A model generated the notes under the pieces. That model had not been told where the DNA came from. It saw nothing but the letters and a program-made list of their open reading frames with translations, and made no database searches. The translations under genes were made by a program, and so were the position numbers. Positions 8,915-32,461 of a DNA stretch of 64,000 bases are shown one piece after another; the stretch's first letter is position 1, and each line of letters opens with the position of its first letter. Source of the DNA: an uncultured Bacilli bacterium (GTDB lineage: Bacteria; Bacillota_I; Bacilli_A; RF39; UBA660); NCBI GenBank assembly GCA_934167465.1, contig CAKPKR010000003.1, forward strand, positions 2,992-66,991, read 5' to 3'.

Positions 8915-9047
8915 GTAAGTAATTCCTTTTTTTGTATTGTTTTTTTTAATGTTTATAATAATAAAAAGATGTAAATAAAAAAATGATGTCTTGCAATATG
9001 TAATATATTTATTATATAATAAAATAGAAAGGTAGTAGTGAAGTAGT
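8915..9047 (+). promoter_or_regulatory. shared promoter and leader module, copy 1 (TTGCAA-18-TATAAT plus conserved 5' UTR ATAGAAAGGTAGTAGTGAAGTAGT-ATG)
   Basis: A module of about 130 bp recurs almost identically upstream of the genes at 9048, 10055 and 49682. The -35 is at 8991-8996 and the -10 at 9015-9020. Confidence 0.55.
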
Positions 9048-9917
9048 ATGAAAAAAATGTTAAGAAGCAGAATTTTTTTGGTAATAGTAACATTAATAAT
9101 AGGAATAAGTGGAACATTATATGCAGCAAACTCATATAACGCAAATGCTATTGTTTATAATTCAAGTGATGGAACAAGTAAAAATGTAAATGAAGCTTTG
9201 AATGATTTATATACAAAAAGTAAAAAAGAATATTATGTAAATGGATTAGTAGCATATTATAATCCTGTAACAGGATCAAAATGTAAAGTAAGCGAAGCAA
9301 CATCAAATACAAATAGCAAAGGAACATATACAGAGGTAAAAACAGGATGTATGAAATGGTATATTTTTAAAGAAGATTTTGATAATTATACAATGATATT
9401 AGATCACAATACTACTGCAAGAATAAAATGGAATGATAATAATGTAAATGTATCTTATGAAAATAGCAATATTAAAGCCGAAGTAGATAAGTTAGTAAGT
9501 GTCTCAAAATGGAAAAATACTCCTAGATTAATTACAGCAAATGAATTATCCAAAATAACAAATAATTCAACTTTTAATGATTCAGTTGAAAATAATTGGT
9601 ATTTTTTTGATAGTAATAGTCATAATCAAACTGCTACATCAAAGGGTGCAAGCACTTATTCTTGGCTATATGATTATACATCTTCTTGTTCAAGTTGGGG
9701 ATGTAATGTGGAAGATAATAATTATTATACTGGCGTTGGTACATCAGGAACTGGTTATTTTTATGGATATTGGACATCAACAACAAGGGGAACAGCTGGT
9801 GCTGGATATGCTGTTTGGGATGTTTTCCATCATGGTAATTTAGATGGTGGTGATGCTAATTATGATGCACGTGGTATTCGCCCAGTTATAACAATTTCAA
9901 AAACAATATTAAAATAA
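9048..9917 (+). CDS. variable secreted protein family member A0 (conserved N-terminal module plus DUF1566/Lcl-C-like C-terminus)
   Basis: The N-terminal 60 aa are shared with the genes at 32462, 33087, 33715, 41108, 42438, 52511 and 61881. The C-terminus, YWTSTT...AVWDVFHHGNL...ARGIRPV, fits the DUF1566 / FGE-fold ending. Confidence 0.6.
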   Translation: MKKMLRSRIFLVIVTLIIGISGTLYAANSYNANAIVYNSSDGTSKNVNEALNDLYTKSKKEYYVNGLVAYYNPVTGSKCKVSEATSNTNSKGTYTEVKTGCMKWYIFKEDFDNYTMILDHNTTARIKWNDNNVNVSYENSNIKAEVDKLVSVSKWKNTPRLITANELSKITNNSTFNDSVENNWYFFDSNSHNQTATSKGASTYSWLYDYTSSCSSWGCNVEDNNYYTGVGTSGTGYFYGYWTSTTRGTAGAGYAVWDVFHHGNLDGGDANYDARGIRPVITISKTILK

Positions 9918-10054
9918 GGAAGTAATTCCTTTTTTTGTATTCTTTTTCTAATAATAGTTATACTAATAAAAAAAGATGTAAATAAAAAAATATTGTCTTG
10001 CAAAAAGTAATACAATTAATGTATAATTGAATAGAAAGGTAGTAGTGAAGTAGT
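9918..10054 (+). promoter_or_regulatory. shared promoter and leader module, copy 2
   Basis: Same module. TTGCAA is at 9998-10003 and TATAAT at 10022-10027. A small AGGAA-gtaa-TTCCT-T7 terminator lies at its 5' end. Confidence 0.55.
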
Positions 10055-11698
10055 ATGAAAAAAGGATTTACATTAATAGAATTATTGGCAGTAATAGTGA
10101 TATTGGCAGTAATAGCATTAATCGCAACACCAATAATATTAAATGTAATAGAAGAATCAAAAAAGGGAGCCGCTGAACAATCAGTAATCGGATATGTAAA
10201 CGGAATAGAGAATAATGTTTTAGTATCAGAATTGGATAATAGTTCTATAGAAGATGGAAGTTACAATATAAATGAAATAGAAGTAGAAGTAAAAGGAAAT
10301 AAACCTGATAGTGGGAATATAACAATAGAAAAAGGAATAGTAGTAGATGCAGTAATGTGTATGAGTGGATATAAAGTAATATATTCAAATAGTAAAGCGG
10401 AAGTCCAAGGAAAATGTGAAGGAAATCTAGTATATAGTGAAGGTATTTTAAATGGAACAGATCCAGTATTAGGTGAAAATATGATACCAGTAACAATAGA
10501 AAAAGATGGAACAGTAAAATATGCAGATATAAATAAGAAATGGTATAGTTATGGAAATAAAGAATGGGCAAATGCAGTAATATTAAATACAAGTAATAGT
10601 TATAATGTAGGAGATATAATACCAGAAAGTGAAATAGAATCATATTTTGTGTGGATACCAAGATATAGATATAAATTATTTAATGTAGATAATACAAGTA
10701 AAGATTCAAAAACATATACAAATTATAAAGATATACCAAGTAAAGCAGAGGAAATAGAAATAGTATTTGAAAATAAAGAAACAAAAATAAGTAACGGAAA
10801 TAAAAATGGTGAATATTTAATGCATCCAGCTTTTACATCATTTGAAAGTAATGGAATGTGGGTAGGAAAATTTGAAACAGGATATAAAGGAGCAACAACT
10901 ACTTCAACAGCTCAAGTAAACTCAAATGATTCTACAAAAGTAATAGTTAAACCAAACGTTTATAGTTGGAGAAGTATAACAGTAGGAAATATCTTTTTAA
11001 CAAGTTATAATTATAAAAGAGATTTGGATTCACATATGATGAAGAATACCGAATGGGGAGCAGTAGCATATCTTTCACATTCAAAATATGGAATAAATAG
11101 TGAAGTAAGAATAAATAATAATAGTGCACATATAACAGGTTATGCAAAGACTGAACAACCAACTTGTGGTTGGACAAATAGTAATGAAGAATGTAATAAG
11201 TTTGAAAGTACGGCTTTAAATCAAGATGGAACATATACAAAAAGATATAATACCGAAATTGGATATTTAGCAAGTACAACAGGAAATATAACCGGAATCT
11301 ATGATATGAGTGGCGGATCTAATGAATATATGGCAGCCTATATGGCAGGACAACTAGGAAATAGTGGACTAATACCAACCGATTATGATTCAAAATATTT
11401 TAATGTATATAATTCATCAAGTACAGTAACAAGTTATCAATATCGCATCTTAGGAGATGCAACTGGAGAAATGGGACCATTTACAAATTTAAAATCAAGT
11501 GGAAGTGATGGAGACAAAACCTCATATGCATCAAGTTGGTATGCCGACCGTTCGAACTTTGTTGACTCTGGTAGCCCTTGGTTCAACCGAGGCGGCGATT
11601 ACGGCCATGGTGTAGTTGCAGGTCAGTTCAACTTCCTTAGGAGCCCGGGTGGTACTTACAGTTACGTTGGCTTCCGCCTAGTTTTAACACCTCAATAA
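10055..11698 (+). CDS. type IV prepilin-like N-terminus fused to an FGE-sulfatase/DUF1566-like domain protein (paralog B1)
   Basis: MKKGFTLIELLAVIVIL is a class III prepilin signal: G then F, with E at +5. The middle and C-terminal parts, TEWGAVAYL, GIYDMSGGSNEY, RGG...VGFRLV, resemble the FGE-sulfatase fold. Confidence 0.6.
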   Translation: MKKGFTLIELLAVIVILAVIALIATPIILNVIEESKKGAAEQSVIGYVNGIENNVLVSELDNSSIEDGSYNINEIEVEVKGNKPDSGNITIEKGIVVDAVMCMSGYKVIYSNSKAEVQGKCEGNLVYSEGILNGTDPVLGENMIPVTIEKDGTVKYADINKKWYSYGNKEWANAVILNTSNSYNVGDIIPESEIESYFVWIPRYRYKLFNVDNTSKDSKTYTNYKDIPSKAEEIEIVFENKETKISNGNKNGEYLMHPAFTSFESNGMWVGKFETGYKGATTTSTAQVNSNDSTKVIVKPNVYSWRSITVGNIFLTSYNYKRDLDSHMMKNTEWGAVAYLSHSKYGINSEVRINNNSAHITGYAKTEQPTCGWTNSNEECNKFESTALNQDGTYTKRYNTEIGYLASTTGNITGIYDMSGGSNEYMAAYMAGQLGNSGLIPTDYDSKYFNVYNSSSTVTSYQYRILGDATGEMGPFTNLKSSGSDGDKTSYASSWYADRSNFVDSGSPWFNRGGDYGHGVVAGQFNFLRSPGGTYSYVGFRLVLTPQ

Positions 11699-11730: not shown

Positions 11731-11889
11731 ATTTAAAAATTATCAACATTTATTTTTAAATTATATTTAATAAATTTGTCGAAATTTATATGTTAAAAAG
11801 TGAATGAAAAAAAGCAAAAATGTAGTAAAATATAAAGCGATATATTTAATTGGTGTTGGTGCATTCCTCCATTATGAGGAGGTGGTATT

Positions 11890-11967
11890 ATGTCTAAAAG
11901 AGAAATTTCCTTTTTCATTATAATACTTCTATTATTTTTTATAATAATTACTTTATTATATAGATAA
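11890..11967 (+). CDS. 25-aa hydrophobic peptide MSKREISFFIIILLLFFIIITLLYR (candidate type I toxin)
   Basis: A strong Shine-Dalgarno sequence, GGAGGTGG, lies inside a CCTCC...GGAGG hairpin. The ORF is conserved in three copies. Confidence 0.5.
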   Translation: MSKREISFFIIILLLFFIIITLLYR

Positions 11968-12082
11968 TAAAATAAGCACTATCACAGGGGGTAGTGCTTT
12001 CTAAATACAATTTGGAATGTATCTAACTCTATCAACAATTAGATATATCCTTTTTTTATTGTATGAGTAATAACTCATCTAT
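11968..12082 (-). ncRNA. predicted antisense sRNA (candidate antitoxin)
   Basis: A minus-strand promoter, TTGAAA-17-TAATAT, is at 12115-12087. The transcript would terminate at the hairpin AGCACTATC...GTAGTGCT plus a T-run, reading in the minus orientation. Confidence 0.4.
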
Positions 12083-12220
12083 ATACATATTAACATTTTT
12101 AAAATATTTTTTCAATAATATTTTAAAATAATTTATAAATGAAATTTTTTATAATTTAATAAGAAATATTGATATATGTTTTTCATCCATTTTATGGTAA
12201 AATAATAATTGGTGGTAAGA

Positions 12221-15784: not shown

Positions 15785-16602
15785 TAAGCTTAGTAATAAT
15801 GGCTGCTGGTCTTGGCTCTAGGTATAAAAATGGAATAAAACAATTAGAGAAAGTTGGACCAAACAATGAAACCATAATGGAATATTCGGTAATGAGTGCG
15901 AAAAAATCTGGAATTGAAGAAGTAATATTTATACTAAGAAAAGATATATTTACTGAATTTAAAGAAGTAATTGGAAATAAAATAGAAAAAATAATTAAAA
16001 CAAGATATGTTTTTCAAGAAGTAGACAAAATACCAAATGAATTTAAGAGTGATAAAAGAATCAAACCCTGGGGAACAGGACATGCCATATTAATGTTAGA
16101 AGAAATGAATAATCCATTTATTGTTATAAATGCCGATGATTATTATGGTGATGAAGGTTTTAAAAATCTATATAATTTTCTAACAAATGTAAATAATAAT
16201 AGTTATAATTATTGTATGTCAGGGTTTATTTTAAAAAATACTTTATCAGATAATGGTGGAGTATCTAGAGGTATTTGTAAAGTCTCTAATGGTTACTTAG
16301 AAGAAATAACTGAAACTTACAATATAACTACTAATAGTAATATTAATATGAATTCTATAGTATCAATGAATATGTGGGGATTTACACCAACAATATTAAA
16401 AGAATTAAAAATAAAATTTGATGAGTTTTTAAAACAAAATAATGAAGACTTGTCTAAGGAATTTTTATTACCAAACATAATTGATGAACTGATTAAAACT
16501 AAAAAAATAACAGTAAAAGTATTAGTCACCAATGATAAATGGTATGGAATAACATATAGTGAAGATTTAAAAAAAATAAAAGATCATTTTAAAAATATCT
16601 AA
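15781..16602 (+). CDS. sugar-nucleotide nucleotidyltransferase-like protein
   Basis: The N-terminus IMAAGLGSRY (GxGxR) matches the NTP_transferase fold. Confidence 0.5.
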   Translation: MISLVIMAAGLGSRYKNGIKQLEKVGPNNETIMEYSVMSAKKSGIEEVIFILRKDIFTEFKEVIGNKIEKIIKTRYVFQEVDKIPNEFKSDKRIKPWGTGHAILMLEEMNNPFIVINADDYYGDEGFKNLYNFLTNVNNNSYNYCMSGFILKNTLSDNGGVSRGICKVSNGYLEEITETYNITTNSNINMNSIVSMNMWGFTPTILKELKIKFDEFLKQNNEDLSKEFLLPNIIDELIKTKKITVKVLVTNDKWYGITYSEDLKKIKDHFKNI

Positions 16603-16685
16603 ATTAATAGATATTTTTTCTATATGCACTTTAAATATAATAAAAAAATTGATATAATACATATAAGAATAAGAAGGGTGACAGT

Positions 16686-18098
16686 ATGAAAAAAACAAAA
16701 ATAATAGGAACTATTGGACCTGCTAGTAAAGATGAAAATGTATTAAAAGAATTAATTATTAATGGACTTGATATAGTAAGAATAAACATGACACATGCTG
16801 ATCATAAATTTGTCCAAGAAATAGTTAATAAAGTTAAAAATATTAATAAAGAATTAAATAAACATACATCAATTATGATTGATTTAAAAGGACCAGACAT
16901 AACTGTTGACGATTTTGAAGGTGGCAGTGCATATCTTAATAAAGGTGATAAAGTAAGAATATATGATGATTATATTTTAGGAGATGCGACTAAATTCTCT
17001 GTAAGTTATCCTAACTTTGTAAAAGATGTAAAAACAAATACTATCATTAAATTGAATGATGGATTAATTGAACTATATGTTTTAGAAAAAGGAGTAGATT
17101 ATTTACTTTGTCAAGTTAATGTTGGAGGTTTTATTGAAAACAATAAAGGTGTTAATGTAATTGATACTAAATTGAATATTCCTTTTTTAAGTCCTAAAGA
17201 TATTGATGATATTAAATTTGCAGATAAAATTGATGCTGATTATTTAGGATTATCTTTTGTTTCCAATCATGAAGATGTATTAGATGTAAATGATTTATTA
17301 ATTAATTTAAAAAATGATCATTTAAGTATCATATCTAAAATAGAAACAGAAGCTTCACTAGAAGATTTAGATGAGATAATTAAATGTAGTGATGGAATAA
17401 TGGTAGCTCGTGGAGATTTGGGCGTAGAAATTCCGCTAGAAAGAGTTCCAGGAATTCAAAAAAGAATATTAACAAAATGTCATATTGAAGGTAAATTAAG
17501 TATAGTAGCTACAGAAATGTTGTCTACGATGGAAAATACAATTAGACCAACTAGAGCAGAAGTTGGTGATGTTGCGAACTCTATTTTAGAGGGAACAGAT
17601 GCAGTATTATTATCAAGTGAAACAGCTATAGGTAATTATCCTATAGAAACTTTAGAAACAATGGTAAAAATAATTGAACAAGCAGAAACGGAAGTTAATT
17701 ATTATGATTTTCTAGATCGAACAATGAGAACTGAAAAACAAGATATTACCAGTTCAATTGCTTATAATGTTGTTGAAAGTTCTGAACGTTTAAAAGCAAA
17801 GTTTATTGTTACACCAACAATGAGTGGTTATACTGCTAAAAAAATTAGTAGATTCAGACCATATTGTCCAATTGTCGCTTTATCTCCAGATGAAGAAGTA
17901 GTAAAAAATTTAAGTATGTATTATGGAATAATTCCTATATTAATAGGTGACGTTAAAACATTTGATAAAATGATGGCAAAAGCAAGAGATGAAGTAATAA
18001 AATTAGGACTACAAGAAAATGATAAATTTATTATTACTGGTGGTTATCCGTTTAATGAAGTTAAACATACTAATTTTATGAAAATAGAAGAAATATAA
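16686..18098 (+). CDS. pyk: pyruvate kinase
   Basis: KIIGTIGPAS, MVARGDLGVEIP and the expected length are present. Confidence 0.9.
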   Translation: MKKTKIIGTIGPASKDENVLKELIINGLDIVRINMTHADHKFVQEIVNKVKNINKELNKHTSIMIDLKGPDITVDDFEGGSAYLNKGDKVRIYDDYILGDATKFSVSYPNFVKDVKTNTIIKLNDGLIELYVLEKGVDYLLCQVNVGGFIENNKGVNVIDTKLNIPFLSPKDIDDIKFADKIDADYLGLSFVSNHEDVLDVNDLLINLKNDHLSIISKIETEASLEDLDEIIKCSDGIMVARGDLGVEIPLERVPGIQKRILTKCHIEGKLSIVATEMLSTMENTIRPTRAEVGDVANSILEGTDAVLLSSETAIGNYPIETLETMVKIIEQAETEVNYYDFLDRTMRTEKQDITSSIAYNVVESSERLKAKFIVTPTMSGYTAKKISRFRPYCPIVALSPDEEVVKNLSMYYGIIPILIGDVKTFDKMMAKARDEVIKLGLQENDKFIITGGYPFNEVKHTNFMKIEEI

Positions 18099-18111
18099 AG
18101 TGGGTGAAAAA

Positions 18112-20520
18112 ATGTATAATTTAGGTAAACAATTTGATTTTGATTATGAACAAGCAAAAGCTAATCCTAAAAATATAGTTCAAGGAAATAAATATAGATT
18201 TACTATTTTAACTGAAAGACTAATTAGAATGGAATATAATGAAAATGGTGTTTTTGAAGATAGACCTACTAAATTAGTTTGGTATCGAAATATGGATAAA
18301 GTTGACTATAAATTAAAAGAAGATGAAAAATATCTTGAAATTGAAACAAGTTATTTTAGATTAACATATAAGAAAGAAAGACCTTTCAAAGGTAGTTGGA
18401 TTAATTCAATGGGAAATTTGAAAGTTGAATTATTAAACTCAGATAGAATATGGTACTATGGCCATCCAGAAGTTAGGAATTATGGTGCTCCTAGTACATC
18501 ATTAGATGATAATAATGGAAAATTAAAATTAAAAAAAGGATTATATTCTGTAGATGGTTTCGCAAGTATCGACAATTCAAATGATTCAATATTTATGCCA
18601 AATGGAACAGTTGAAGAAAGAGTTGAAACTGGATTAGATATATATTTATTTATGTATTTAAAAGATTTCGCATTATGTCTAAAAGATTATTTTGGTATTA
18701 CTGGAAGTCCTGCTTTAATTCCTAGATATGCTTTAGGAAATTGGTGGAGTAGGAACTTAGAATATAATGATAAAACATTAAGTGAATTAGTTAATAGTTT
18801 TGAAGAAAATAAGATACCATTATCTGTTGTTTTATTAGATAAAGATTGGCATATAAGAGAATACAATGGCAAAAAATATGAAACTGGATTTACTTGGAAT
18901 GATAGACTATTTGTTAATCCTAAAAAAATGATTGAATATCTACATCGAAAAGGTGTTAGAATTGGTTTGAATGTTGATCCATTAGAAGGAATTTTGCCTT
19001 ATGAAGAAAGATTCAATACTTTAACTAATTATTTGGATAAAAATGAAAACGGAGTTATACCATTTAATGTATTTAATCCTAAAACAATAGATGCTTATTT
19101 AAAAATTTTAATTCATCCATTAGATGAACAAGAAGTTGATTTCTATTGGATAAACTATGAAGAAAAGAAAAAATTAAATGAATTATTTTTACTTGATCAT
19201 TATCATTTTAATGATATGAAAAGAGATTATAAAAGGAGGCCAATGGTATTAACTAGAAATCATTTAATCGCACCTCATAGATATCCAGTATTATATTCTG
19301 GTAAAACAATTGTAAGTTGGGATACACTAAAAATGATTCCATATCATAATGCCAGTGCTACTAATATTGGTGTAAGCTTTTGGAGCCATGATATAGGTGG
19401 TTATTATAAAGGAACTGAAGATAATGAATTATACACTAGATATGTTCAATTAGGGGTATTTTCTCCAATCTTAAAATTTGGTAGTGATGAAGGAAAATAT
19501 TATAAGAGGGAACCTTGGAAATGGGGAATTAAAACCTATAGTATTGTAAGAGATTATTTACAACTTAGACATAGATTAATACCATATATGTATGCCGAAA
19601 GTTATAAATATCACGAATATGGTATGCCTCTTATAATGCCTATTTATTATAAATATCCTGAAATGTATGATGATGCTAACTATAGAAATGGATATTACTT
19701 TGGAACAGAATTATTTGTATCTCCAATTATTAATAAAAAAGATTATATAATGAATAGATCAATTCATAAATTTTTCCTACCTGATGGTGTATGGTATGAT
19801 TATGTTACTGGTAAGAAATTCCCTGGCGGTAAAAATTATGTTTCATTTTTTAAAGACGAAGATTATCCTGTATTTGCCAAAGCCGGTTCAATTATAACTT
19901 TAGGTGATAATGAAAATATTAATGATACAACACCACCTAAAAATTTAGAAATTCAAATTTTTCCAGGTAGAAGCAATACTTATAATTTGTATGAAGATGA
20001 TGGTGTTAGTGATCTACATAGGAAAGACTTCTATTTGTTAACGTCAATTGATTATAATTATATGCCTAATAATTATACAGTTATTGTTAGACCTCTGACT
20101 GGTAAAACAGGTATAGTTCCAGAAACTAGAAATTATAAATTTGTGTTTAGAAATACTAAAAAGGCTAATGATGTTATTGTTTATTTTAATGATACACCAA
20201 TAGATGCTAAAGGATATGTTGAAAAAAATAATTTTGTTGTTGAAGTCAATGATGTTTCAACAATTGGACAATTAACAATCAATTGTAAAGGAAAAGATAT
20301 TGAAATTGATGCTGTTAGATTAATCAATGATGATATTGAATCAATCATATCAGACTTACAAATTGAAACTAGTATGAAACAAATGATTGATGAAGTATTA
20401 TTTAGTGATTTATCAATTAAAAAGAAAAGAATTGGTATCAGAAAATTAAGTAGAAAAGGTTTAGAACACAAATTTGTTAAATTATTCTTAAAATTATTAG
20501 AATATGTTGAACAAGTATAA
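18112..20520 (+). CDS. glycoside hydrolase family 31 (alpha-glucosidase/xylosidase-like)
   Basis: Signatures WIDMNE-like, DKDWH and FWSHDIGGY are present. The protein is about 800 aa. Confidence 0.65.
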   Translation: MYNLGKQFDFDYEQAKANPKNIVQGNKYRFTILTERLIRMEYNENGVFEDRPTKLVWYRNMDKVDYKLKEDEKYLEIETSYFRLTYKKERPFKGSWINSMGNLKVELLNSDRIWYYGHPEVRNYGAPSTSLDDNNGKLKLKKGLYSVDGFASIDNSNDSIFMPNGTVEERVETGLDIYLFMYLKDFALCLKDYFGITGSPALIPRYALGNWWSRNLEYNDKTLSELVNSFEENKIPLSVVLLDKDWHIREYNGKKYETGFTWNDRLFVNPKKMIEYLHRKGVRIGLNVDPLEGILPYEERFNTLTNYLDKNENGVIPFNVFNPKTIDAYLKILIHPLDEQEVDFYWINYEEKKKLNELFLLDHYHFNDMKRDYKRRPMVLTRNHLIAPHRYPVLYSGKTIVSWDTLKMIPYHNASATNIGVSFWSHDIGGYYKGTEDNELYTRYVQLGVFSPILKFGSDEGKYYKREPWKWGIKTYSIVRDYLQLRHRLIPYMYAESYKYHEYGMPLIMPIYYKYPEMYDDANYRNGYYFGTELFVSPIINKKDYIMNRSIHKFFLPDGVWYDYVTGKKFPGGKNYVSFFKDEDYPVFAKAGSIITLGDNENINDTTPPKNLEIQIFPGRSNTYNLYEDDGVSDLHRKDFYLLTSIDYNYMPNNYTVIVRPLTGKTGIVPETRNYKFVFRNTKKANDVIVYFNDTPIDAKGYVEKNNFVVEVNDVSTIGQLTINCKGKDIEIDAVRLINDDIESIISDLQIETSMKQMIDEVLFSDLSIKKKRIGIRKLSRKGLEHKFVKLFLKLLEYVEQV

Positions 20521-20556
20521 AATCTTATGTTAGATGAACATAAGATTTTTTCTTAA
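20521..20556 (+). terminator. rho-independent terminator
   Basis: AATCTTATG-9nt-CATAAGATT is followed by T6. Confidence 0.55.
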
Positions 20557-20634
20557 ATAAAATTGATTTTTTTCTATTAATCGACTTATTAATTAATTTT
20601 TTATGCATATAATAATCTTTGAAAGGAGAAGAAT

Positions 20635-22914
20635 ATGTTTGCAAATTTTGAAGAGGAGTCACGAGTAATATTAGTAGCCGCAAAAAAAGAAATGCAAGAA
20701 CTAAAACATCCTTATATTGGAAGTGAACATATGCTACTTGCAATCTTAAATAATGATAATGATGTTTCAAAAAAATTAAAAGAATATAATATAGATTATA
20801 AAGGCTTTAAAAAAGAAGTAATAAATATAGTAGGTATTGGTGCAAAAGAAAATGACCTTTTTTTATATACTCCATTACTTAAAAGGGTAATAGAAAATGC
20901 CATAATTGATAGTAAAGAATTTAATTCTGGAGAAGTTTCTATAAGTAATTTATTTGCTAGTTTATTAGAAGAAGGTGAGGGTGTAGCCCTTAGAATTTTA
21001 CTTAGTATGAATGTTGATTTAGATGAATTATATAGTGAATTTAATTATAATTTAACGACAAAAAAGAAGAAAAAAAATAAAAAACTTATAATTGAAGAAA
21101 TGGGTGAAAACTTAGTAGAAAAAGCTTCTTATTTAGATCCTGTGATTGGAAGAGAAAAAGAAGTAAAAAGATTAATTGAAATTTTATCAAGAAGAACTAA
21201 AAATAATCCTATTCTAATAGGAAATGCAGGAGTAGGTAAAACAGCAATTGTTGAAGAACTTTCTAGAATGATTGCGAATAATACTGTACCTATAAACTTA
21301 AGAAATAAAAAAATAATAAGCTTAGATATGGCTAGTACTGTAGCTGGAACAAAATATCGAGGTGAATTTGAAGAAAGATTAAAAAAAATCATTAAAGAAG
21401 TTGAAGATAATGATGATATAATCTTATTTATTGATGAAATTCATACATTAGTAGGTGCTGGCGGAGCAGAAGGAGCTATTGATGCATCTAATATTTTTAA
21501 ACCCGCTTTAGCGCGTAATAAACTAAGATGTATTGGAGCTACAACAATTGATGAATATAAAAAGTATATTGAACAAGATAGTGCTTTAGAAAGAAGATTT
21601 CAAAAAATTATAATTAATGAACCAAATAAAAATGAAGTGAAAAATATTTTAAACAACATTAAGCCTATATATGAAAAATATCATAATGTAATAATATCTA
21701 ATGAAATAATTGATATGATTGTTGATTTAACAAGTAAATATATATTTGGAAGATTTGAACCTGATAGATCAATTGATATTTTAGATGAAGTATGTGCGAA
21801 GGTAAGTTTGAAAGAAAATAAGAATTTAAAAAAATATTTAAATCTTAAAAAAGAATATGAAAAAATTAACAATGAAAAACATAAGGCTATCATTAATAAT
21901 GAATATAATAAAGCTTTAGAAATAAAAGATTATGAAAATAATGTTATTGATAAAATAAATAAAATGGAATTAAAACTATATGAAAAAAACAGTAATAATG
22001 TTGAAAAAATAGATGTTGCTGAGGTAATTGCTGCTAAATCTAATATGCCAATATATGAGGTAATAAAAGATGATAAGAAGATTATTAAAGAATTAGAAAA
22101 GAGTCTAAATAATGGAATTATTGGTCAAGATAATGCTTTAAGAGAAGTAATGAAAATAGCTAAAAAAATAAAATTAGGTTATACTGATAATAAGTGTTAT
22201 TCAATGTTATTTGTAGGGCCATCAGGAGTTGGTAAAACTCTTTTAGCTAATATGTTTGGTAAAAATATGAATATGAATGTTATTAAATTGGATATGTCAG
22301 AATATATAGAAGAACATAGTGTTAGTAAAATAATAGGTTCGCCTCCAGGATATGTTGGATATAAAGAATCAAATACTATTTTAGATGAAATAAGAGATAA
22401 TCCTAATACACTATTGATTTTAGATGAAATTGAAAAAGCTCATCCGAATGTAATAAATTTATTTCTCCAAGTTTTAGATGATGGGAAATTAAAAGATAGT
22501 ACTGGTAAGATAGTTCGTTTTGATAATTCAATTATAATAATGACTTCTAATGTTGGAATATATGATAATAATATGGGCTTTGTTTTAAACAAAGAAAATA
22601 TGACAAAATTAAAGGATTCTTTTTCACCACAATTTATAAATAGGATAAATAATATTATATATTTTAATAAATTAAATGAAGAGGCAATTTCTAAAATAGT
22701 TGATATAAAATTAAATGAAATTAAAAATAAATACGAAATTAAATTAAATAAAAATATTAAAAATGAAGTAATAGAATTATCTGACTTTAAAGAATTTGGC
22801 GCTAGAAAAATAGAAAAAATTATTAAAGATAGATTAGAAAATCAAATTATCGACAAATTAATTATGAATGAATTTCCAAATATTACTACCTTAAAAGAAG
22901 AAAGTATTGTTTAA
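20635..22914 (+). CDS. clpC: ClpC-like AAA+ chaperone ATPase
   Basis: Clp_N repeats, two Walker A boxes (GNAGVGKTA and GPSGVGKT), and the ClpB D2-small domain are present. Confidence 0.7.
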   Translation: MFANFEEESRVILVAAKKEMQELKHPYIGSEHMLLAILNNDNDVSKKLKEYNIDYKGFKKEVINIVGIGAKENDLFLYTPLLKRVIENAIIDSKEFNSGEVSISNLFASLLEEGEGVALRILLSMNVDLDELYSEFNYNLTTKKKKKNKKLIIEEMGENLVEKASYLDPVIGREKEVKRLIEILSRRTKNNPILIGNAGVGKTAIVEELSRMIANNTVPINLRNKKIISLDMASTVAGTKYRGEFEERLKKIIKEVEDNDDIILFIDEIHTLVGAGGAEGAIDASNIFKPALARNKLRCIGATTIDEYKKYIEQDSALERRFQKIIINEPNKNEVKNILNNIKPIYEKYHNVIISNEIIDMIVDLTSKYIFGRFEPDRSIDILDEVCAKVSLKENKNLKKYLNLKKEYEKINNEKHKAIINNEYNKALEIKDYENNVIDKINKMELKLYEKNSNNVEKIDVAEVIAAKSNMPIYEVIKDDKKIIKELEKSLNNGIIGQDNALREVMKIAKKIKLGYTDNKCYSMLFVGPSGVGKTLLANMFGKNMNMNVIKLDMSEYIEEHSVSKIIGSPPGYVGYKESNTILDEIRDNPNTLLILDEIEKAHPNVINLFLQVLDDGKLKDSTGKIVRFDNSIIIMTSNVGIYDNNMGFVLNKENMTKLKDSFSPQFINRINNIIYFNKLNEEAISKIVDIKLNEIKNKYEIKLNKNIKNEVIELSDFKEFGARKIEKIIKDRLENQIIDKLIMNEFPNITTLKEESIV

Positions 22915-23045
22915 ATAATACTTTTTTTTGTCGGAATTTGTATGTTAAAAAATGGATAAACAAAAACTAAAATGTAGTAGAATATAAAGCGATATATTTA
23001 ATTGGTGTTAGTGCATTCCTTCTAGAATAAGAAGGCGGTGATATT

Positions 23046-23123
23046 ATGACAAAAAGAGAAATATCTTTATTTTTAATAATAATTCTATTATTTGTTATAA
23101 TTTTTATTTTATTATATAAATAA
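23046..23123 (+). CDS. 25-aa hydrophobic peptide MTKREISLFLIIILLFVIIFILLYK (candidate type I toxin)
   Basis: The Shine-Dalgarno sequence AGAAGGCGGTG is sequestered in the hairpin CCTTCT-agaata-AGAAGG. Confidence 0.5.
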   Translation: MTKREISLFLIIILLFVIIFILLYK

Positions 23124-23236
23124 AAAAATGCACTATCACAGGGGGATAGTACTAACTAAAAAACCATTTAGGAATGTATCTAATTTTTAGAACAATTAGA
23201 TATATCCTTTTTTAATTATATGGGCATTACTTATCT
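23122..23236 (-). ncRNA. predicted antisense sRNA (candidate antitoxin)
   Basis: The minus-strand promoter has TTGAAA at 23271-23266, a 17-nt spacer and TATTAT at 23248-23243. A terminator hairpin at 23130-23152 is followed by an A-run on the plus strand. Confidence 0.4.
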
Positions 23237-23336
23237 ATATACATAATAACATTTTAAAAATATTTTTTCAATAATTTTATGTAATTTACGAATATAAACA
23301 AAATAGACTTTTTAACAAAAATTTGATACAATTTTA

Positions 23337-23978
23337 TTGGTGATTAATGTGAGATTAAAATATGTAAAAGGCGCTAGTGAAAAGATTGAAAAATCTCCTT
23401 ATGTAATTTTAAATCCTAGTGATTATAAAGGTAAATATAATGAACTATTTAACAATAATAATCCAATTTATATAGAAATAGGTATGGGTAAAGGAACATT
23501 TATATATGAAAATGCTTTAAAATATCCTAATATTAATTTTATTGGAATAGAAAAATATGATAGTGTAATGGTAAGAGCAATTGAAAAAGTAGAAAAAGAA
23601 GAAATAAATAATTTAAAATTTATTAGAATAGATGCTAGAAAAATAGAAGAAATATTTGATAAAGAAATAGATAGAATTTATTTAAATTTTTCTGATCCTT
23701 GGCCAAAAGTAAGACACGATAAAAGAAGATTAAGTAGTCCTAATTTTTTAGAAAAATATGATAATATATTCAAAAAAGAAAAAAGGATTATTATGAAAAC
23801 TGATAATAGAAAATTATTTGAATTTTCCATTATATCTTTTACAAATTATGGCTATAAAATAAATGATATTTCATTGGATTTACATAATGATGATATAAAA
23901 GACAATATTGAAACCGAGTATGAAAAGAAATTCTCATCAATGGGATACCCTATTTATAAAATTGATGTATCTAAATAA
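23337..23978 (+). CDS. trmB: tRNA (guanine46-N7)-methyltransferase TrmB
   Basis: IEIGMGKGTF is a SAM-binding motif. FSDPWPKVRHDKRRL is also present. Confidence 0.8.
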   Translation: MVINVRLKYVKGASEKIEKSPYVILNPSDYKGKYNELFNNNNPIYIEIGMGKGTFIYENALKYPNINFIGIEKYDSVMVRAIEKVEKEEINNLKFIRIDARKIEEIFDKEIDRIYLNFSDPWPKVRHDKRRLSSPNFLEKYDNIFKKEKRIIMKTDNRKLFEFSIISFTNYGYKINDISLDLHNDDIKDNIETEYEKKFSSMGYPIYKIDVSK

Positions 23979-24062
23979 GTAGACATTTGTTGGACACTTA
24001 TTTAGAAAAAAAGTAGTCTAATTTTAATATTTTTGATATAATTAGAATAAGAGTGGTGATAT

Positions 24063-24656
24063 ATGAAAAAATTAGCTATTCTATTTATGATATTATTACT
24101 TACAGGATGTACAGTAGTAAGAATAGATACAAAAAGTATCGATAACATTACAAATGTAATTTTATCTAAAGAAAACAATATTTTTAATAGAGTTGGAAAA
24201 GGTTATAAATATTATATTCCTAGAGGTGTTTCTTACATTGATACAACTGAACTAAATGATAAATTATATTCAAATGGAGTTTATTACTATTTATATGTTG
24301 ATGCTGTAAGTTATTATTATAAAACAAAAACAGAATATAAAGAAAACAAAGAATTATATTATTCTAAAAAAATAATGGGAGCGAAAGATGGTTATTTAGA
24401 AATTACAAAAAAAGAAAATGATTATTATATCGTATTTGTTTACAACTATGCCAAAATAGAAGCTAAAGTAAGTAAAGATAAAATAGAAGAAGTAGTGTTG
24501 AATGCAAGTTATATTTTATCTACTGTAAAGTTTAATGATAATATAGTTGGATTAATGTTAGATAATGATTATTTTACAAATAAAGAAGAACAATATGATG
24601 TCTTTAGTAAAAAAAATGAGAATAATAATTTCTTAATTGATGAGGAAGAAAAATAG
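24063..24656 (+). CDS. lipoprotein, hypothetical
   Basis: The signal peptide carries the lipobox LLTGC. Confidence 0.5.
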   Translation: MKKLAILFMILLLTGCTVVRIDTKSIDNITNVILSKENNIFNRVGKGYKYYIPRGVSYIDTTELNDKLYSNGVYYYLYVDAVSYYYKTKTEYKENKELYYSKKIMGAKDGYLEITKKENDYYIVFVYNYAKIEAKVSKDKIEEVVLNASYILSTVKFNDNIVGLMLDNDYFTNKEEQYDVFSKKNENNNFLIDEEEK

Positions 24657-24666
24657 AGGTGGATAT

Positions 24667-25611
24667 ATGAAACTATTTGATAAAGTAAAAAATCTATTTA
24701 CAGAAGAAGTAGAAGAAGAACCAGTAGTAAAAAAAGAAGTAAGACATGTTGAGGTAACAGCTCCTACTAGAGTTGAGAGAGAACCTGAAATAGTAGAAGA
24801 AAAAGAAGAAAAAAAAGAAGAAAAATTTGTGTTCTTTTCAGATGATGATTTTAAAGACTTAGAAAGACCAAAACCTAAAAAAGAAGAACCAAAACCTGAA
24901 AAAAAAGAAGAACCAAAACCATATCGTGGAGCTGCTTTTACTCAAATTGTTGAAGAAAAGAAACCATTTAAACCTTCACCAATTATTTCTCCTGTTTATG
25001 GTGTTTTAGATAAAAATTATTCGAAAGATGAAGTCGTAACTAAGAAAGTTACCCGTTCATATTCTTATGATAATAAAAAATTATCAGTAGATGATATTAG
25101 AAATAAAGCTTATGGAACAGTAGAAGATGATATTAAAGATGAGTTATTAGGCAACATTCAATTTGAAAAGAAGGAAGAACCTATTGTTAATGATATTGAC
25201 ATATTTCAAGAATTAGAAAAATATGAAGAATTGGATAAATTAGAAAAAAAAGTAAATGATAATAAAGATAATAATATTGATGATTTATTTGATGAGTTAG
25301 ATAATAAAAAAGTAGAGATACTAGATGAACTTGATAATAAAAAAGATGAAATATTAGATGAATTATCTAGCAAAAAAGATGACATAATAATAAATGATGA
25401 TGGTTTAGATGATGAAACTTTAGAATTATCAAAACAATTAGAAACACAAAGAAGAAAATTAGATGAATTAAATGACTTCTTAGAAGATAATGAAGAAGAA
25501 CCAGAAGAATTAGATTTTGAATTAGAAGAAAAAAAATCTGATGATGAACTAAACGAAAGTGAATTGTTTGATTTAATTGACTCTATGTACGAAAAAAAGG
25601 ATGATGAATAA
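24667..25611 (+). CDS. highly acidic Glu/Lys/Asp-rich repeat protein
   Basis: The sequence is low-complexity, with internal repeats DELDNKKVEILDELDNKKDEILDEL. Confidence 0.4.
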   Translation: MKLFDKVKNLFTEEVEEEPVVKKEVRHVEVTAPTRVEREPEIVEEKEEKKEEKFVFFSDDDFKDLERPKPKKEEPKPEKKEEPKPYRGAAFTQIVEEKKPFKPSPIISPVYGVLDKNYSKDEVVTKKVTRSYSYDNKKLSVDDIRNKAYGTVEDDIKDELLGNIQFEKKEEPIVNDIDIFQELEKYEELDKLEKKVNDNKDNNIDDLFDELDNKKVEILDELDNKKDEILDELSSKKDDIIINDDGLDDETLELSKQLETQRRKLDELNDFLEDNEEEPEELDFELEEKKSDDELNESELFDLIDSMYEKKDDE

Positions 25612-25892
25612 TGAATGAAGTTTTTCCTATCATATTATATATATTAGGGAGCATATTATTAGTAGTACTTATTATTTTAGTTATTAAAATAATGATTACA
25701 TTAAATAAGGTTGATAAAGCAATAGAAGACTACAATGATAAATCAAGTAAACTTAATGGTTTATTTGATATTATTGATAGTACAACTGATACTATATCTT
25801 CTATAGGTGATAAAGTTATTAGTTCTATTATTAGTGGAATAACAGCTTTAATTACTAGGAAAAGAAAAAAGGAGGAACAAGAAGATGAGTAA
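25611..25892 (+). CDS. small membrane protein (DUF948/YtxG-like)
   Basis: An N-terminal transmembrane segment is followed by a coiled region. The ORF overlaps the next gene. Confidence 0.35.
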   Translation: MNEVFPIILYILGSILLVVLIILVIKIMITLNKVDKAIEDYNDKSSKLNGLFDIIDSTTDTISSIGDKVISSIISGITALITRKRKKEEQEDE

Positions 25893-26292
25893 AGAAAAAA
25901 AAGGATTAGGTAAATTATTTGCAGGAATTGCTATTGGTGCTGGACTTGGAGTTTTGTTTGCACCTAAGAAAGGTTCTGAAACAAGAAAGGATTTAATGAA
26001 TAAATTTGAAGAATTAAAATTAAAAGCTAAAGATATTGATATTGATGAAGTAAGAGATAATATTGATGAAAAAATAGAAAATCTTAAAGCTGAATTAGCT
26101 GATTTAGATAAAGAAAAAGTTTTAAAAATTGCTAAAAAGAAAGCTGGACAAATTAGAGATATGGCTGAAGAATTAGTTGATTATGCCGTTGAAAAAGGAA
26201 CTCCAGTATTAGAAAAAGCTGCAACAGCTGCTAGAAACAAAGCAATTGATGTTACTAAAGAAATTTTAGAAAAATTAGAAAAAGAAAAATAG
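25885..26292 (+). CDS. YtxH-like protein
   Basis: GKLFAGIAIGAGLGVLFAPKKGSETRKDL matches the YtxH N-terminus. Confidence 0.5.
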   Translation: MSKEKKGLGKLFAGIAIGAGLGVLFAPKKGSETRKDLMNKFEELKLKAKDIDIDEVRDNIDEKIENLKAELADLDKEKVLKIAKKKAGQIRDMAEELVDYAVEKGTPVLEKAATAARNKAIDVTKEILEKLEKEK

Positions 26293-26321
26293 TCTATACA
26301 AAAGTATAGATTTTTTTGTAA
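26293..26321 (+). terminator. rho-independent terminator
   Basis: TCTATAC-aaaag-TATAGA is followed by T7. Confidence 0.5.
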
Positions 26322-26506
26322 AATTTTAGTAAAAAATGAATCTATAGATAGTTAAGTTAGAGATTTAAACTTTATTTAATAAAAGTGTTAATTTTATTAA
26401 ATAAACATATAATTAATAGTATTAAATACAAATCATAATTAAATGTAAATATTTTCTTTACAAATAAGTATTATTATTATACAATTAAACTAGAAGGAGG
26501 GTTGTT

Positions 26507-27190
26507 ATGAAAAATAAAATATGGGGATTAGTACTAATTGCAATAGGACTTATTTTTGGATTAAATGCATTAGAGATAACAAATATTGATATTTTCTTTG
26601 ATGGTTGGTGGACCTTATTTATAATAGTTCCATGTTTCATTGGTCTAATTACAGAAAGGGAAAAAACAGGAAATTTAATTGGATTATTAGTTGGTATTTC
26701 TTTATTATTAGGTTGTTTAGATATTTTAGAATTTGAAACAATTGGAAAATTAATATTTCCAGTAATATTAGTTATTATTGGATTATCAATTTTATTCAAA
26801 GATACTATCACTAGAGAAGTAACAAAAGAAATAGATAGGTTAAATGATAAAAGAGAAAAAGAAAATGAGTATTGTTCTACATTTAGTTCTCAAACAATAA
26901 ACATTGATGATGAATTTAAAGGCTGTGATTTAACAACAGTATTTGGTGGAATGAAATTTGATTTAAGTGAAGCTAAAATAAATGAAGACGTTGTTATAAA
27001 TGCAACAGCAGTATTTGGTGGAATTACAATTAATGCTCCTAAAGGCGCAAAAATAAAAGTAAAATCTAATTCAATCTTTGGTGGAGTTACAAATAAAAGT
27101 ACCGCTAATGATGGAAGTATTGTTTATGTAAATTGTTTTTGTTTGTTTGGAGGAGTAGAAATTTATGACTCAAACTCAAAAAATAATTAA
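26507..27190 (+). CDS. LiaF-like membrane protein (DUF2154-type C-terminal domain)
   Basis: An N-terminal transmembrane region is followed by repeated FGG(I/V)T motifs. Confidence 0.4.
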   Translation: MKNKIWGLVLIAIGLIFGLNALEITNIDIFFDGWWTLFIIVPCFIGLITEREKTGNLIGLLVGISLLLGCLDILEFETIGKLIFPVILVIIGLSILFKDTITREVTKEIDRLNDKREKENEYCSTFSSQTINIDDEFKGCDLTTVFGGMKFDLSEAKINEDVVINATAVFGGITINAPKGAKIKVKSNSIFGGVTNKSTANDGSIVYVNCFCLFGGVEIYDSNSKNN

Positions 27191-27965
27191 ATACTTTGCA
27201 ATAGCCTTAGCTTTTTTAATTATATTTAGTATTTTTAGTTCAATATTTGGGTTTATAAATACATTAACTATGAAAAAAGAAAAGGATAGAAAAATAGAAT
27301 CGATATTTAATTCTGATTATGCAAATGTAGCTTATTTAGATATTGATGTTAAAGCTGTAGATTTAGTTATAAAAACTGGTAATAATTTAATAGTGGAAAC
27401 AAATAATAAGTATATCAATTGTAAACAAAATAGCAATAAATTAATTATTAAAGAAAGAAAACATAGTAGTTGGAGCAAAAATAATAATAAACTAATAATT
27501 ACAATACCTGAAAATATTGAATTTGATGCCTTTAGACTAGATGCTGGAGCTGGAAAAATAGATATAGATCAAATAAATTCTAAAAAAACCGATATTAATT
27601 TAGACACTGGAAAAGCTACTATTAATGTTCTTAATGCTACTGATAAATTAAAATTAGATACAGGTGTCGGAAAGCTAGAAATTTTAAATGGAATAATTAA
27701 TAATTTAGATTTAGATATGGGTGTTGGAAAAGTTTCAATCAATTCTAAATTAGTTGGTAAAAGTAAAATTGAAGCTGGAATTGGTACTTTAAGAATTAAT
27801 CTATTAGATAAAAAAGACAATTATTCGATTGAAGTTAGTAAAGGATTAGGAACAATAAGTTTAAATGAAAAAAAATTAAACGAAGGTACTTATGGAAATA
27901 GTTCTAATGAAATAAATATTGATGGTGGCATTGGAAATATAGATATTACAACTACTGAGAGATGA
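27165..27965 (+). CDS. DUF4097-like putative beta-helix adhesin domain protein
   Basis: Repeats D(T/M)GVGK(L/V)xI(N/L)N are present. The gene overlaps the preceding LiaF-like gene. Confidence 0.4.
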   Translation: MTQTQKIIKYFAIALAFLIIFSIFSSIFGFINTLTMKKEKDRKIESIFNSDYANVAYLDIDVKAVDLVIKTGNNLIVETNNKYINCKQNSNKLIIKERKHSSWSKNNNKLIITIPENIEFDAFRLDAGAGKIDIDQINSKKTDINLDTGKATINVLNATDKLKLDTGVGKLEILNGIINNLDLDMGVGKVSINSKLVGKSKIEAGIGTLRINLLDKKDNYSIEVSKGLGTISLNEKKLNEGTYGNSSNEINIDGGIGNIDITTTER

Positions 27966-28025
27966 TAATTCTCATCTTTTTTTTATTGTTTTTTAATGCT
28001 ATAATCAATATAAGGAGTAGGTTAT

Positions 28026-28523
28026 ATGATGATTATATATTATATAGTGTCAATACTATCAATTTTTTTATTTGTAATAAGTATTCAATTTAAAGATAAA
28101 AAGGATATATTACTAATTCAAACTTTTGCATCTATGTGCTACTTCATAGCTTATTTGATATTAGGATCACATAGTGGATGTGCTATCGAATTGATTGAAC
28201 AAACAAAAGATATAGTATTTTATAGGTATGAAAAAAAGAAGAAAGAAATTTCTATAATATTATTAATAATATTTGTAAGTTCTTTAATTATAGCTTCAAT
28301 TATTACGTATGATGGTTTTTATTCTTTAATGCCACTAATCATAAATTTACTGTATTTTGTATCTTCATATTTTAAAAATCCAAAATATATGAGAATAACA
28401 ATGTTATTATGTGGTTTCTTATGGATATATTTTAATTTTAAAGTTGGTGCTTATATTATAATAATTGGTAATATATTAGAAATTATCTCTGCTATTATTT
28501 CATTAGTGAGGTATAAGAAATAA
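28026..28523 (+). CDS. hypothetical membrane protein
   Basis: The ORF has 4-5 transmembrane segments. Confidence 0.3.
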   Translation: MMIIYYIVSILSIFLFVISIQFKDKKDILLIQTFASMCYFIAYLILGSHSGCAIELIEQTKDIVFYRYEKKKKEISIILLIIFVSSLIIASIITYDGFYSLMPLIINLLYFVSSYFKNPKYMRITMLLCGFLWIYFNFKVGAYIIIIGNILEIISAIISLVRYKK

Positions 28524-28524
28524 T

Positions 28525-28887
28525 ATGGAAAATAATATTGAACAATTATTGGATTCTTTAGCAACATCTAAATTTAGATCTTCATTCCATCTAAATTCTA
28601 AAATGAAGGACTATGTAATGGAAAAAGGATTAAATAAAATTAAATTGGATGCAATTGATTTAATAAAAAAAAGAGTAGAACCAGAAAATCCAAATAATGA
28701 TGGTAAACAAACACCTATGAAACAAGTACATCCGGTTTTTATAGCACAACATGCTACTGGGTGTTGTTGTAGAGGTTGTTTAGAGAAAATTCACCATATA
28801 AAAAAAGGACATAAACTTTCTAACAAAGAAATTGATTATATTGTAAATGTAATAATGCTGTGGATTCAAAGAGAAATAAAAAAATAG
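28525..28887 (+). CDS. DUF4186-like Cys-rich protein
   Basis: The ATGCCCRGCLEKIHHI motif is present. Confidence 0.35.
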   Translation: MENNIEQLLDSLATSKFRSSFHLNSKMKDYVMEKGLNKIKLDAIDLIKKRVEPENPNNDGKQTPMKQVHPVFIAQHATGCCCRGCLEKIHHIKKGHKLSNKEIDYIVNVIMLWIQREIKK

Positions 28888-29076
28888 TACTAGTACTAAA
28901 ATTTGAGTAAATTATAAAGAATTAAAGTTTCATTATAGATTTAGTGAGTTAAATACAAAACATTGTTACAAATGGAAGTAAATATGTTTTTTTACTGTAA
29001 TAATAGTTTTAAAGTCAGATATGTTAACTTGCAATAATCTTAAATTTATAGTATTATTGTTATTAGGTGATAAAAA

Positions 29077-29391
29077 ATGGAATATATACAATATTTAATA
29101 ATAATTGTTGTCGCTCTTTTAATAGCTTTTGCAATTATAAAATCAAAGAAAAAAGATTTCAAAATGGATGTGAACAAATTAGTTACTTATTTAGGTGGGA
29201 AAGACAATATTTTAGAGTATGAATTTTCTAAATCAAGATTCATTGTTACTTTAAAAAATGTCGACATAGTTAATAAAGAAGGAATCCAAAAAATGGGGGC
29301 TCAAGGTATAGTTGAAATAGATAATCAATTAAAAATTATAATTGGTGAAGAAGCAAAACAATTAAAAAAATATATAGATGAATTAAAATAA
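29077..29391 (+). CDS. membrane-anchored PTS EIIB-like domain protein (lacks the phospho-Cys)
   Basis: LGGKDNI...GAQGIVEIDNQLKIIIG resembles the EIIB fold without the catalytic Cys. Confidence 0.3.
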   Translation: MEYIQYLIIIVVALLIAFAIIKSKKKDFKMDVNKLVTYLGGKDNILEYEFSKSRFIVTLKNVDIVNKEGIQKMGAQGIVEIDNQLKIIIGEEAKQLKKYIDELK

Positions 29392-29445
29392 GCATTGAAA
29401 AATGCTTTTTTTCGACAAAAAATGACATAAATAAATTGTATAATT

Positions 29446-32438: not shown

Positions 32439-32461
32439 ATTGATAGAAAGTAGGAATCTAG

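Follow-up and report, generated by a model that had tools for sequence, protein, structure and literature searches.

How does a small intergenic repeat in the chromosome of a gut Bacilli bacterium come to carry, in copy after copy, a hairpin that hides its own ribosome binding site, and what would such a hairpin do? The window, by which we mean the whole 64-kb stretch of DNA that was analysed, belongs to a chromosome with 22–31% GC and a strong strand bias. It contains four copies of a ~350-nt direct repeat, all on the plus strand and all intergenic, and in each of them a pyrimidine-rich tract stands directly upstream of a Shine-Dalgarno (SD) sequence that it can pair with. Our preferred answer, to which we assign a probability of roughly 0.7, is that this SD hairpin is the translation-damping element of a multicopy module resembling type I toxin-antitoxin systems.

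A repeated module with putative transcription signals on both strands

Copy 1 of the repeat spans 11774–12129 (+), as delimited by the four-copy alignment and by nhmmer with the family profile (E = 4e-91), and copies 2 to 4 lie at 22924–23286, 40653–41022 and 61438–61797, all (+). Reading 5′ to 3′ on the plus strand, the module consists of a TTTGTCGGAATTTGTATGT box, a −10-like hexamer, a leader, the SD hairpin, an open reading frame (ORF), two further hairpins that we call T1 and T2, a small hairpin and a minus-strand promoter. In copy 2 the SD hairpin occupies 23018–23035, the ORF 23046–23123 and T1 23130–23152, and T2 ends at 23213; the corresponding positions are 40748–40765, 40776–40853, 40861–40884 and 40944 in copy 3. 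In copy 4 the hairpin is at 61529–61546, the ORF begins at 61560, T1 is at 61643–61665 and T2 ends at 61719.

The putative promoter of the toxin mRNA is marked by the −10-like hexamer, which is kept in all copies (TAAAAT at 11826–11831 (+) in copy 1, TAGAAT in copies 2–4). The −35 element of this promoter is weak in the window's subfamily, so the start of the toxin mRNA is placed only tentatively, at about 11837–11839. In two diverged subfamilies of the module, B and C, the promoter is a canonical TTGACT-17-TATAAT, and its spacing to the leader matches that of the hexamer in the main subfamily. The TTTGTCGGAATTTGTATGT box (11775–11793, 22925–22945, 40655–40675 and 61440–61460) stands ~45 nt upstream of the hexamer and aligns with the −35 region of subfamilies B and C, TTGTTGACT; it may act as a second promoter or as an operator. 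The 5′ leader itself (11839–11867 (+)), which takes part in both the minimum free energy (MFE) and the alifold structures, is nearly invariant in 17 copies, its 30-nt sequence CGATATATTTAATTGGTGTT[A/G]GTGCATTCC having a single variable position.

Downstream of the ORF, the T1 hairpin (11976–11997, no strand assigned; GCACTATCACAGGGGGTAGTGC) is followed by T2 (12014–12057 (+); GGAATGTATCTAAC...CAATTAGATATATCC, then T7, or T6–7 across copies), which is the putative mRNA terminator and a modest one (−6 to −13 kcal/mol). The T1 sequence, GCACTATCACAGGGGGATAGTGC, has a good U-tract on the minus strand only, and T1 is therefore assigned as the terminator of an antisense RNA. A simple terminator scan flagged neither T1 nor T2. 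The antisense promoter, TTGAAA-17-TAATAT preceded by TG (an extended −10), lies at 12087–12115 (−) and is kept in all three subfamilies. With its ends taken from this promoter and from the T1 U-tract, the putative antisense (antitoxin) RNA would cover 11962–12080 (−), a molecule of ~120 nt with a predicted fold of three stem-loops. It would overlap the 3′ UTR of the mRNA at ~11965–12057, about 90 nt, and reach the stop codon at most. These predicted elements point to an antisense RNA gene with its own promoter and terminator that is complementary to the toxin mRNA, as is characteristic of type I loci.

The 25-aa ORF

The ORF of copy 1 (11890–11967 (+); MSKREISFFIIILLLFFIIITLLYR) encodes a putative membrane toxin of 25 aa, and all 16 intact ORFs of the main subfamily have exactly this length. 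They follow the pattern M[KST][KE]RE...LLY[KR], with ~18 hydrophobic residues and a hydrophobic core. Variable columns are distributed 12/6/14 over the three codon positions, the second being the least variable, and the substitutions are conservative. In most copies the start codon has a strong SD at a distance of 7–8 nt, and subfamilies B and C, despite a fully diverged leader, have homologous ORFs of 32 aa and 27 aa, respectively. Type I toxins are characterized by a length of <70 aa, hydrophobicity, a transmembrane stretch and a polar or aromatic C-terminus (Fozo et al., PMC2887945), and the sequence of the 25-aa peptide suggests a small hydrophobic protein of this type. Searches of Pfam and NCBIfam with eight peptide variants returned nothing meaningful, the best match being to an enterococcal pheromone-inhibitor model at E = 0.038, below the cut-off.

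The ORF of copy 4 (61560–61636) has a run of five A (GAGAAAAACTC), compared with six in its closest homologues, L001 and L009. It is frameshifted, with a stop at 61587–61589 after 9 codons, and its hairpin, T1, T2 and antisense promoter are intact. Either the toxin of copy 4 is decaying while its antitoxin is retained, or the frameshift is a homopolymer sequencing error.

We also observed that C-containing Leu/Phe codons in the middle of the ORF (CTTCCT, ACTCCT, TTCCTTCT; for example at 61593–61601 of the window and at L019:17610–17620) make up a second anti-SD-like tract. It pairs with the SD region in the alifold structures of subfamilies B and C, and it recalls the ORF-internal anti-SD sequences of aapA1.

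Distribution of the module

The window ('main') subfamily comprises 17 toxin-bearing copies, 13 of them outside the window. One exact-pattern scan of species-representative genomes located the module in two metagenome-assembled genomes, CAKOTA01 (uncultured Bacilli, from a Hadza gut sample) and CAZXOH01 (labelled Muribaculaceae), and a metagenome scan added one more full copy and one toxin-less fragment. At L012:5801–6854, three complete modules stand head to tail, ~350 nt apart, some of them with GTG starts. The fragment, at L013:3113–3287, consists of T1, T2 and the antisense promoter only, without leader or ORF, and could be an orphan antitoxin. Subfamilies B (L019, L020 and L024) and C (L025) were reached by following contigs with genes for MutS relatives and for relatives of a DUF1846 protein, and they occupy one syntenic locus; no module was found on the contigs around MutS relatives of ~78–83% identity (L021–L023) or around DUF1846 relatives (L027–L031). 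Every homologue belongs to a single narrow clade of uncultured Bacilli of the gut. Two further matches, L003 (an Anaeroplasmataceae contig) and L010 (Pinibacter), lie inside unrelated sequence and were discarded as chance matches.

CAZXOH01, recorded as 'uncultured Muribaculaceae' (Bacteroidota), holds at least five copies (L001, L002, L006, L008 and L011) on contigs that otherwise resemble those of the Bacilli relatives, and it was probably misbinned or mislabelled. The name Candidatus Saccharibacteria is likewise attached to several DUF1846 relatives.

Searching the whole 64-kb window against Rfam at the gathering score gave no family, including no tRNA, rRNA, riboswitch or T-box, and searching the four module regions at E up to 10 gave noise only. 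Neither two scans of a viral-contig collection nor BLAST against plasmids and phages produced a match.

The strains with 97–99% identical MutS (L017, L018, L032 and L033) are without copy 1. Their homology to the window begins at 12179–12180, ~50 nt past the end of the module profile (12129), and different genes lie upstream. The synteny between L017 and the window jumps from 16581 to 34306. Modules may mark points of rearrangement or insertion. Upstream of copy 1, the last ~160 nt (11540–11698) of a 547-aa ORF (10055–11698) are much richer in G+C than the window (~25% GC), and L032 and L033 have a G+C-rich stretch upstream of mutS, outside called genes. A repeated 5′ region of 90 nt (9000–9089 and 10007–10096) is common to the genes at 9048–9917 and 10055–11698. 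The second of these genes starts MKKGFTLIELLAVI and resembles a type IV pilin or pseudopilin N-terminus; relatives at the pilin-like locus carry N_methyl (PF07963) genes.

It is conceivable, if unlikely, that the ORF encodes a small membrane protein that does no harm and whose expression a cis-antisense RNA and the SD hairpin adjust, and that no toxin-antitoxin system exists here. No toxin family matches the peptides, and their toxicity is putative. The distribution of the module speaks for a different kind of locus. Four copies in 64 kb, the tandem triplet of L012, the L013 fragment that keeps the antitoxin half only, the frameshifted ORF of copy 4 beside an intact antisense half and the varying presence of the module among close strains are typical of selfish or addictive toxin-antitoxin loci, and not of a housekeeping small protein. 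A tandem or multicopy arrangement is typical of type I loci (PMC2887945), and the four copies in the window and the triplet in L012 display the same tendency.

An upstream anti-SD tract is predicted to close the ribosome binding site

In copy 1 the hairpin is formed by CCTCC (11866–11870), the loop ATTATGA and GGAGG (11878–11882), followed by TGGTATT and the start codon at 11890–11892; it thus occupies 11866–11882 (+), beginning 2 nt before the coordinate (11868) given in the initial annotation. In copies 2–4 it reads CCTTCT-N6-AGAAGG, starting at 23018, 40748 and 61529 (+), with loops AGAATA, AGAATA and ATAATA and 3′ flanks cggtg, tggtg and agagg, respectively. The sequences of all four hairpins, including these flanks, are as first described. 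The motif CCTTCT-N6-AGAAGG occurs 3 times in the window compared to 0.04 expected, and CCTCC-N7-GGAGG occurs once compared to 0.01 expected, counts in which the copies are paralogous repeats and not independent events.

The SD hairpin is present in the MFE structure of all four window copies, whether the leader, the mRNA ending at T1 or the mRNA ending at T2 is folded. The same holds for every copy of the module with the RNA truncated behind the ORF, at T1 or at T2. Its folding free energy is −5.9 to −6.6 kcal/mol in the window copies and −5.1 to −6.6 kcal/mol in all copies. Pair probabilities are 0.9–1.0 in copies 2–4 and about 0.5–0.6 in copy 1; across copies they are mostly 0.8–1.0, falling to 0.2–0.7 in the full-length L007 transcript. 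The initial annotation had allowed that the hairpins might prove unstable in the full leader, and in that context they are stable. Copy 1 does not stand out in its local folding (z = −0.75; 44 of 200 shuffles equally stable), and the z-scores of the other copies are ~ −2 to −2.6.

We calculated the free energy needed to open the SD. It is 7.7–9.6 kcal/mol in copies 1–3, compared to a median of 2.4 kcal/mol and a 90th percentile of 5.8 kcal/mol for 35 ordinary genes of the window. The folding calculations indicate that the SD hairpin is real and is kept in every copy of the repeated module, and that the SD of the putative toxin mRNA is sequestered by an upstream anti-SD, as in type I systems. 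For a type I toxin, sequestration of the SD by an upstream hairpin is an expected and well-known kind of control.

Pairing persists across changes of loop, stem and register

The initial annotation stated that both arms had changed together between copy 1 and the other copies, and it took this as direct covariation evidence for selection on the structure. Pairing is indeed kept, but only copy 1 differs, and it differs by one pair changed on both sides. Across 13 sequences of the SD stem (12 distinct rows), this one pair in this one sequence is the only double-sided change, and 34 of 500 column shuffles reach as much. Copies 2–4 have a common stem, so that the comparison contains only one contrast, and direct covariation was too strong a description of it.

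Aligned from the start codon, the nearest relatives of copy 1 read AGAAGGAGGTGGTATT[A/G]TG, and the closest type is that of L004 and L012 (CCTTCT-TCAA-AGAAGG-AGGTGGTATT-RTG). In this ATG-anchored alignment the 3′ arm of copy 1, GGAGG, is the SD core and is displaced downstream by 3 nt relative to the AGAAGG arm found in the other copies, corresponding to GG/AGG of the L004 and L012 copies. Its 5′ arm has changed from CCTTC to CCTCC, by which a possible U-G becomes C-G. On this alignment the change in copy 1 reads as a hairpin that was re-registered and preserved, rather than as a clean column-by-column compensation. The orthologue of copy 1 upstream of mutS is absent in the closest strains (L017, L018, L032 and L033), and the CCTCC/GGAGG variant therefore rests on one sequence.

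The case for selection on SD sequestration comes mainly from the 17 copies and from subfamilies B and C, the four-copy comparison being no strong proof. Six different loop sequences occur, namely AGAAUA, AUAAUA, UCAA, UAAA, AAAC and AUUAUGA. Across the main subfamily, B and C, loops measure 3–7 nt, stems measure 5–10 bp and the register varies, and pairing persists throughout. In L006 a U-A pair of the SD stem is replaced by U-G, and L009 has a stem of 7 bp. Subfamily B forms the stem ACCUUC-A-UCC...GGA-A-GGAGGU and subfamily C the stem ACCUUCAUCA-UAA-UGA-U-UGGAGGU. A CCUUC or CCUCC tract pairs with the SD tract in every module, the 5′ arm being an invariant CCUUC in 19 of 20 modules. Taken as predicted pairings on aligned sequences, these data support selection for SD sequestration.

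We consider it very improbable that the hairpin is a by-product of ancestry, that is, that CCUUCU is an inherited terminator tail which happens to complement a purine-rich SD. Such a history would account for the resemblance between the 3′ part of the leader and the T2 3′ arm with its U-tract (UUAGUGCAUUCC-UUCU compared to UUAGAUAUAUCC-UUUU). It would also suit a near-invariant 5′ arm, which leaves little true covariation, and arms that are each under a constraint of their own, namely SD function for the 3′ arm and the neighbouring leader for the 5′ arm. However, the pairing survives changes in loop length and loop sequence, copy 1 and subfamily C shift the stem to the SD core rather than losing it, L006 exchanges U-A for U-G, L009 extends its stem, and the SD is far more closed than in the ordinary genes of the window.

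The leader is predicted to pair with both arms of the terminator hairpin

RNAalifold and single-sequence MFE folding both close the mRNA by pairing between the leader and T2. In copy 1 the leader segment GATATATTTAATTG (11839–11852) pairs with the T2 3′ arm and the segment GTTGGTGCATTCC (11855–11867) with the T2 5′ arm (−14.0 and −15.1 kcal/mol, respectively). In the main subfamily, helix 1 (GAUAUAUUUAAUUG with CAAUUAGAUAUAUC) has 14 bp and helix 2 (GUUAGUGCAUUCC with GGAAUGUAUCUAAC) has 13 bp with one bulge. The design of 14 + 13 bp (12 bp for helix 2 of C) recurs in subfamilies B and C, built from unrelated sequences.

The orthologous B and C loci differ by 3 clean compensatory pairs in helix 1 and by 4 in T1. 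Of the cells in this comparison, 97.8% are paired, compared to 31–50% in slid registers, which give at most 1 compensatory pair, and 0 of 500 shuffles reach the observed value. MAFFT misaligns the T2 5′ arm between B and C, and helix 2 looks broken there; direct duplex folding of helix 2 gives 12–13 bp in each subfamily. The leader–T2 pairing is worth −13.5 to −30 kcal/mol, compared to −4 to −7 kcal/mol with shuffled leaders, and it outweighs the T2 hairpin (−6 to −13 kcal/mol). As a structural result, based on predicted folds and compensatory changes, the 5′–3′ pairing appears stronger than the covariation of the SD stem.

The antisense RNA is the complement of T2; consequently, the leader is a sequence mimic of the antisense RNA, and the two cannot pair. 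A free leader is predicted to extend the SD stem from 6 bp to about 10 bp (CAUU pairs with GGUG). When the 3′ UTR is blocked, the predicted cost of opening the SD rises by 0–3 kcal/mol in the window subfamily and by about 0 in B and C. Because blocking adds so little, we treat the hairpin as a constitutive damper of translation, and a bsrG-like tightening of the SD helix is a weakly supported hypothesis.

The least probable reading of all is that the repeat is a non-coding intergenic element (MITE/REP-like or a portable bidirectional terminator) with an incidental ORF, SD and hairpin: every copy is intergenic, the unit ends are inverted repeats at the DNA level (leader and T2), synteny breaks coincide with the module edge and no gene is called at the modules in public assemblies, but against this stand the invariant ORF length (25 aa in 16 copies), the conservative substitutions with the second codon position least variable, the strong SD 7–8 nt from the start in most copies, the homologous ORFs kept in B (32 aa) and C (27 aa) though the leader has fully diverged, and the promoters conserved on both strands.

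Comparison with known type I systems

The closest experimentally studied case is bsrG/SR4 of Bacillus subtilis, whose layout matches that of the module. In bsrG mRNA, nt 1–35 pair with nt 232–262 (helix P1), and a separate helix of 4 bp contains the SD; binding of SR4 to the 3′ part of the mRNA frees nt 1–33 and lengthens the SD helix from 4 to 8 bp (PMC3834814). SR4 inhibits bsrG translation besides promoting decay, and first contact is made via the terminator loop of the antitoxin (PMC3834814). The module resembles this system in its putative convergent antisense RNA, which overlaps the 3′ end of the toxin mRNA, and in its predicted long 5′–3′ mRNA helix, here the leader–T2 helix of 14 + 13 bp, whose 3′ strand falls within the region that the antitoxin is predicted to bind. 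A further likeness is the SD in a short helix, modelled here at 6 bp, and the complementary T1 loops parallel the loop contact of bsrG/SR4.

The two systems differ in several respects. There is no sequence similarity of toxin or RNAs according to Rfam, Pfam and NCBIfam, and the peptide here has 25 aa, compared to 38 aa for BsrG. Helix P1 lies just upstream of the terminator SL4 in bsrG mRNA, whereas the 3′ strand of the long helix is here the terminator hairpin T2 itself, so that helix and terminator exclude each other. In addition, antisense binding is predicted to tighten the SD only slightly, and the module is multicopy and chromosomal, outside any prophage.

Other Gram-positive families with a 3′ overlap, namely txpA/RatA, bsrE/SR5, yonT/SR6 and SprG/SprF, have antisense RNAs that also overlap the ORF, unlike the overlap here, which is essentially confined to the 3′ UTR, and the module has no Rfam or Pfam match. 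The module is like Fst/RNAII (par of pAD1) and SprA1/SprA1as in having convergent RNAs, a common terminator region, an ORF that is not overlapped and an SD in a stem-loop. In those systems the interaction takes place outside the overlap, at the 5′ region of the mRNA (PMC8594479); here, by contrast, leader and antisense RNA are of the same sense. We rejected a trans interaction of the Fst/SprA1 type with the mRNA 5′ region, as the duplex energies of the antisense RNA with the 5′ part of the mRNA were within the shuffled range in most copies tested, copy 3 being an exception (−42.6 compared to a shuffled minimum of −38.1). The peptides gave no significant match to an Fst-type toxin or to any other family in Pfam or NCBIfam.

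3′ processing of hok mRNA triggers a refolding that allows both translation and antisense binding (PMC8309996; Franch et al. 1997), and mRNA folding controls toxin expression in aapA1 (PMC5416894). The module is like hok/Sok and aapA1/IsoA1, both Gram-negative, in having a full-length mRNA closed by 5′–3′ pairing, an mRNA that in those systems is translationally inert. It differs from them in that their antisense RNAs pair with the 5′ region or the ORF and not with the 3′ UTR only; the toxins are unrelated, and no processing site can be inferred here. The initial annotation proposed that processing or refolding of the mRNA ends the repression of the toxin. The examples of hok, aapA1 and bsrG make such an activation plausible; that it occurs by processing, as in hok, is pure analogy.

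A proposed mechanism

The elements of the module suggest the following sequence of events. Transcription of the plus strand would yield an mRNA of ~220 nt that encodes the 25-aa hydrophobic peptide. The CCUCC or CCUUC tract, 4–7 nt upstream of the purine-rich SD, would fold back on it, and the ribosome site would therefore be closed by default. The leader adjoining the anti-SD would at the same time pair with both arms of T2, creating a 5′–3′ helix like helix P1 of bsrG mRNA. A convergent antisense RNA of ~120 nt would start just beyond T2, read back through T2 and end at T1; its complementarity to the mRNA 3′ UTR would be complete over about 90 nt. First contact would likely be made by the T1 loops, ACAGGGGG and CCCCCUGU, which are G-rich in one RNA and C-rich in the other; they are complementary and, judged by their sequences, would make ideal kissing partners. 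Antisense pairing would then displace the leader and mark the duplex for decay, and the freed leader could add pairs to the SD helix, taking it from 6 to about 10 bp.

A more specific proposal, which we put forward tentatively and at clearly less than even odds, is that the modules are an undescribed high-copy type I family of gut Bacilli whose leader mimics the antitoxin RNA and pairs with both terminator arms. The terminator, the closed 5′–3′ form and the antitoxin-bound form would then be mutually exclusive states, and the antitoxin would displace the leader, which would in turn lengthen the anti-SD helix. If this is true, a dual control like that of bsrG is built directly into the terminator.

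Implications

The modules are an undescribed and unannotated gene family of a well-known kind, resembling type I systems, and known type I families cover few phyla (PMC12390103). At four copies in 64 kb the module is dense, and it was missed by gene callers, Rfam, Pfam and NCBIfam. Repeats of this sort break metagenome assemblies and may mark rearrangement points. The three subfamilies provide a natural covariation series for a bsrG-like mRNA architecture, and they would allow 5′–3′ closure together with the SD hairpin to be tested as a general design of Gram-positive type I systems.
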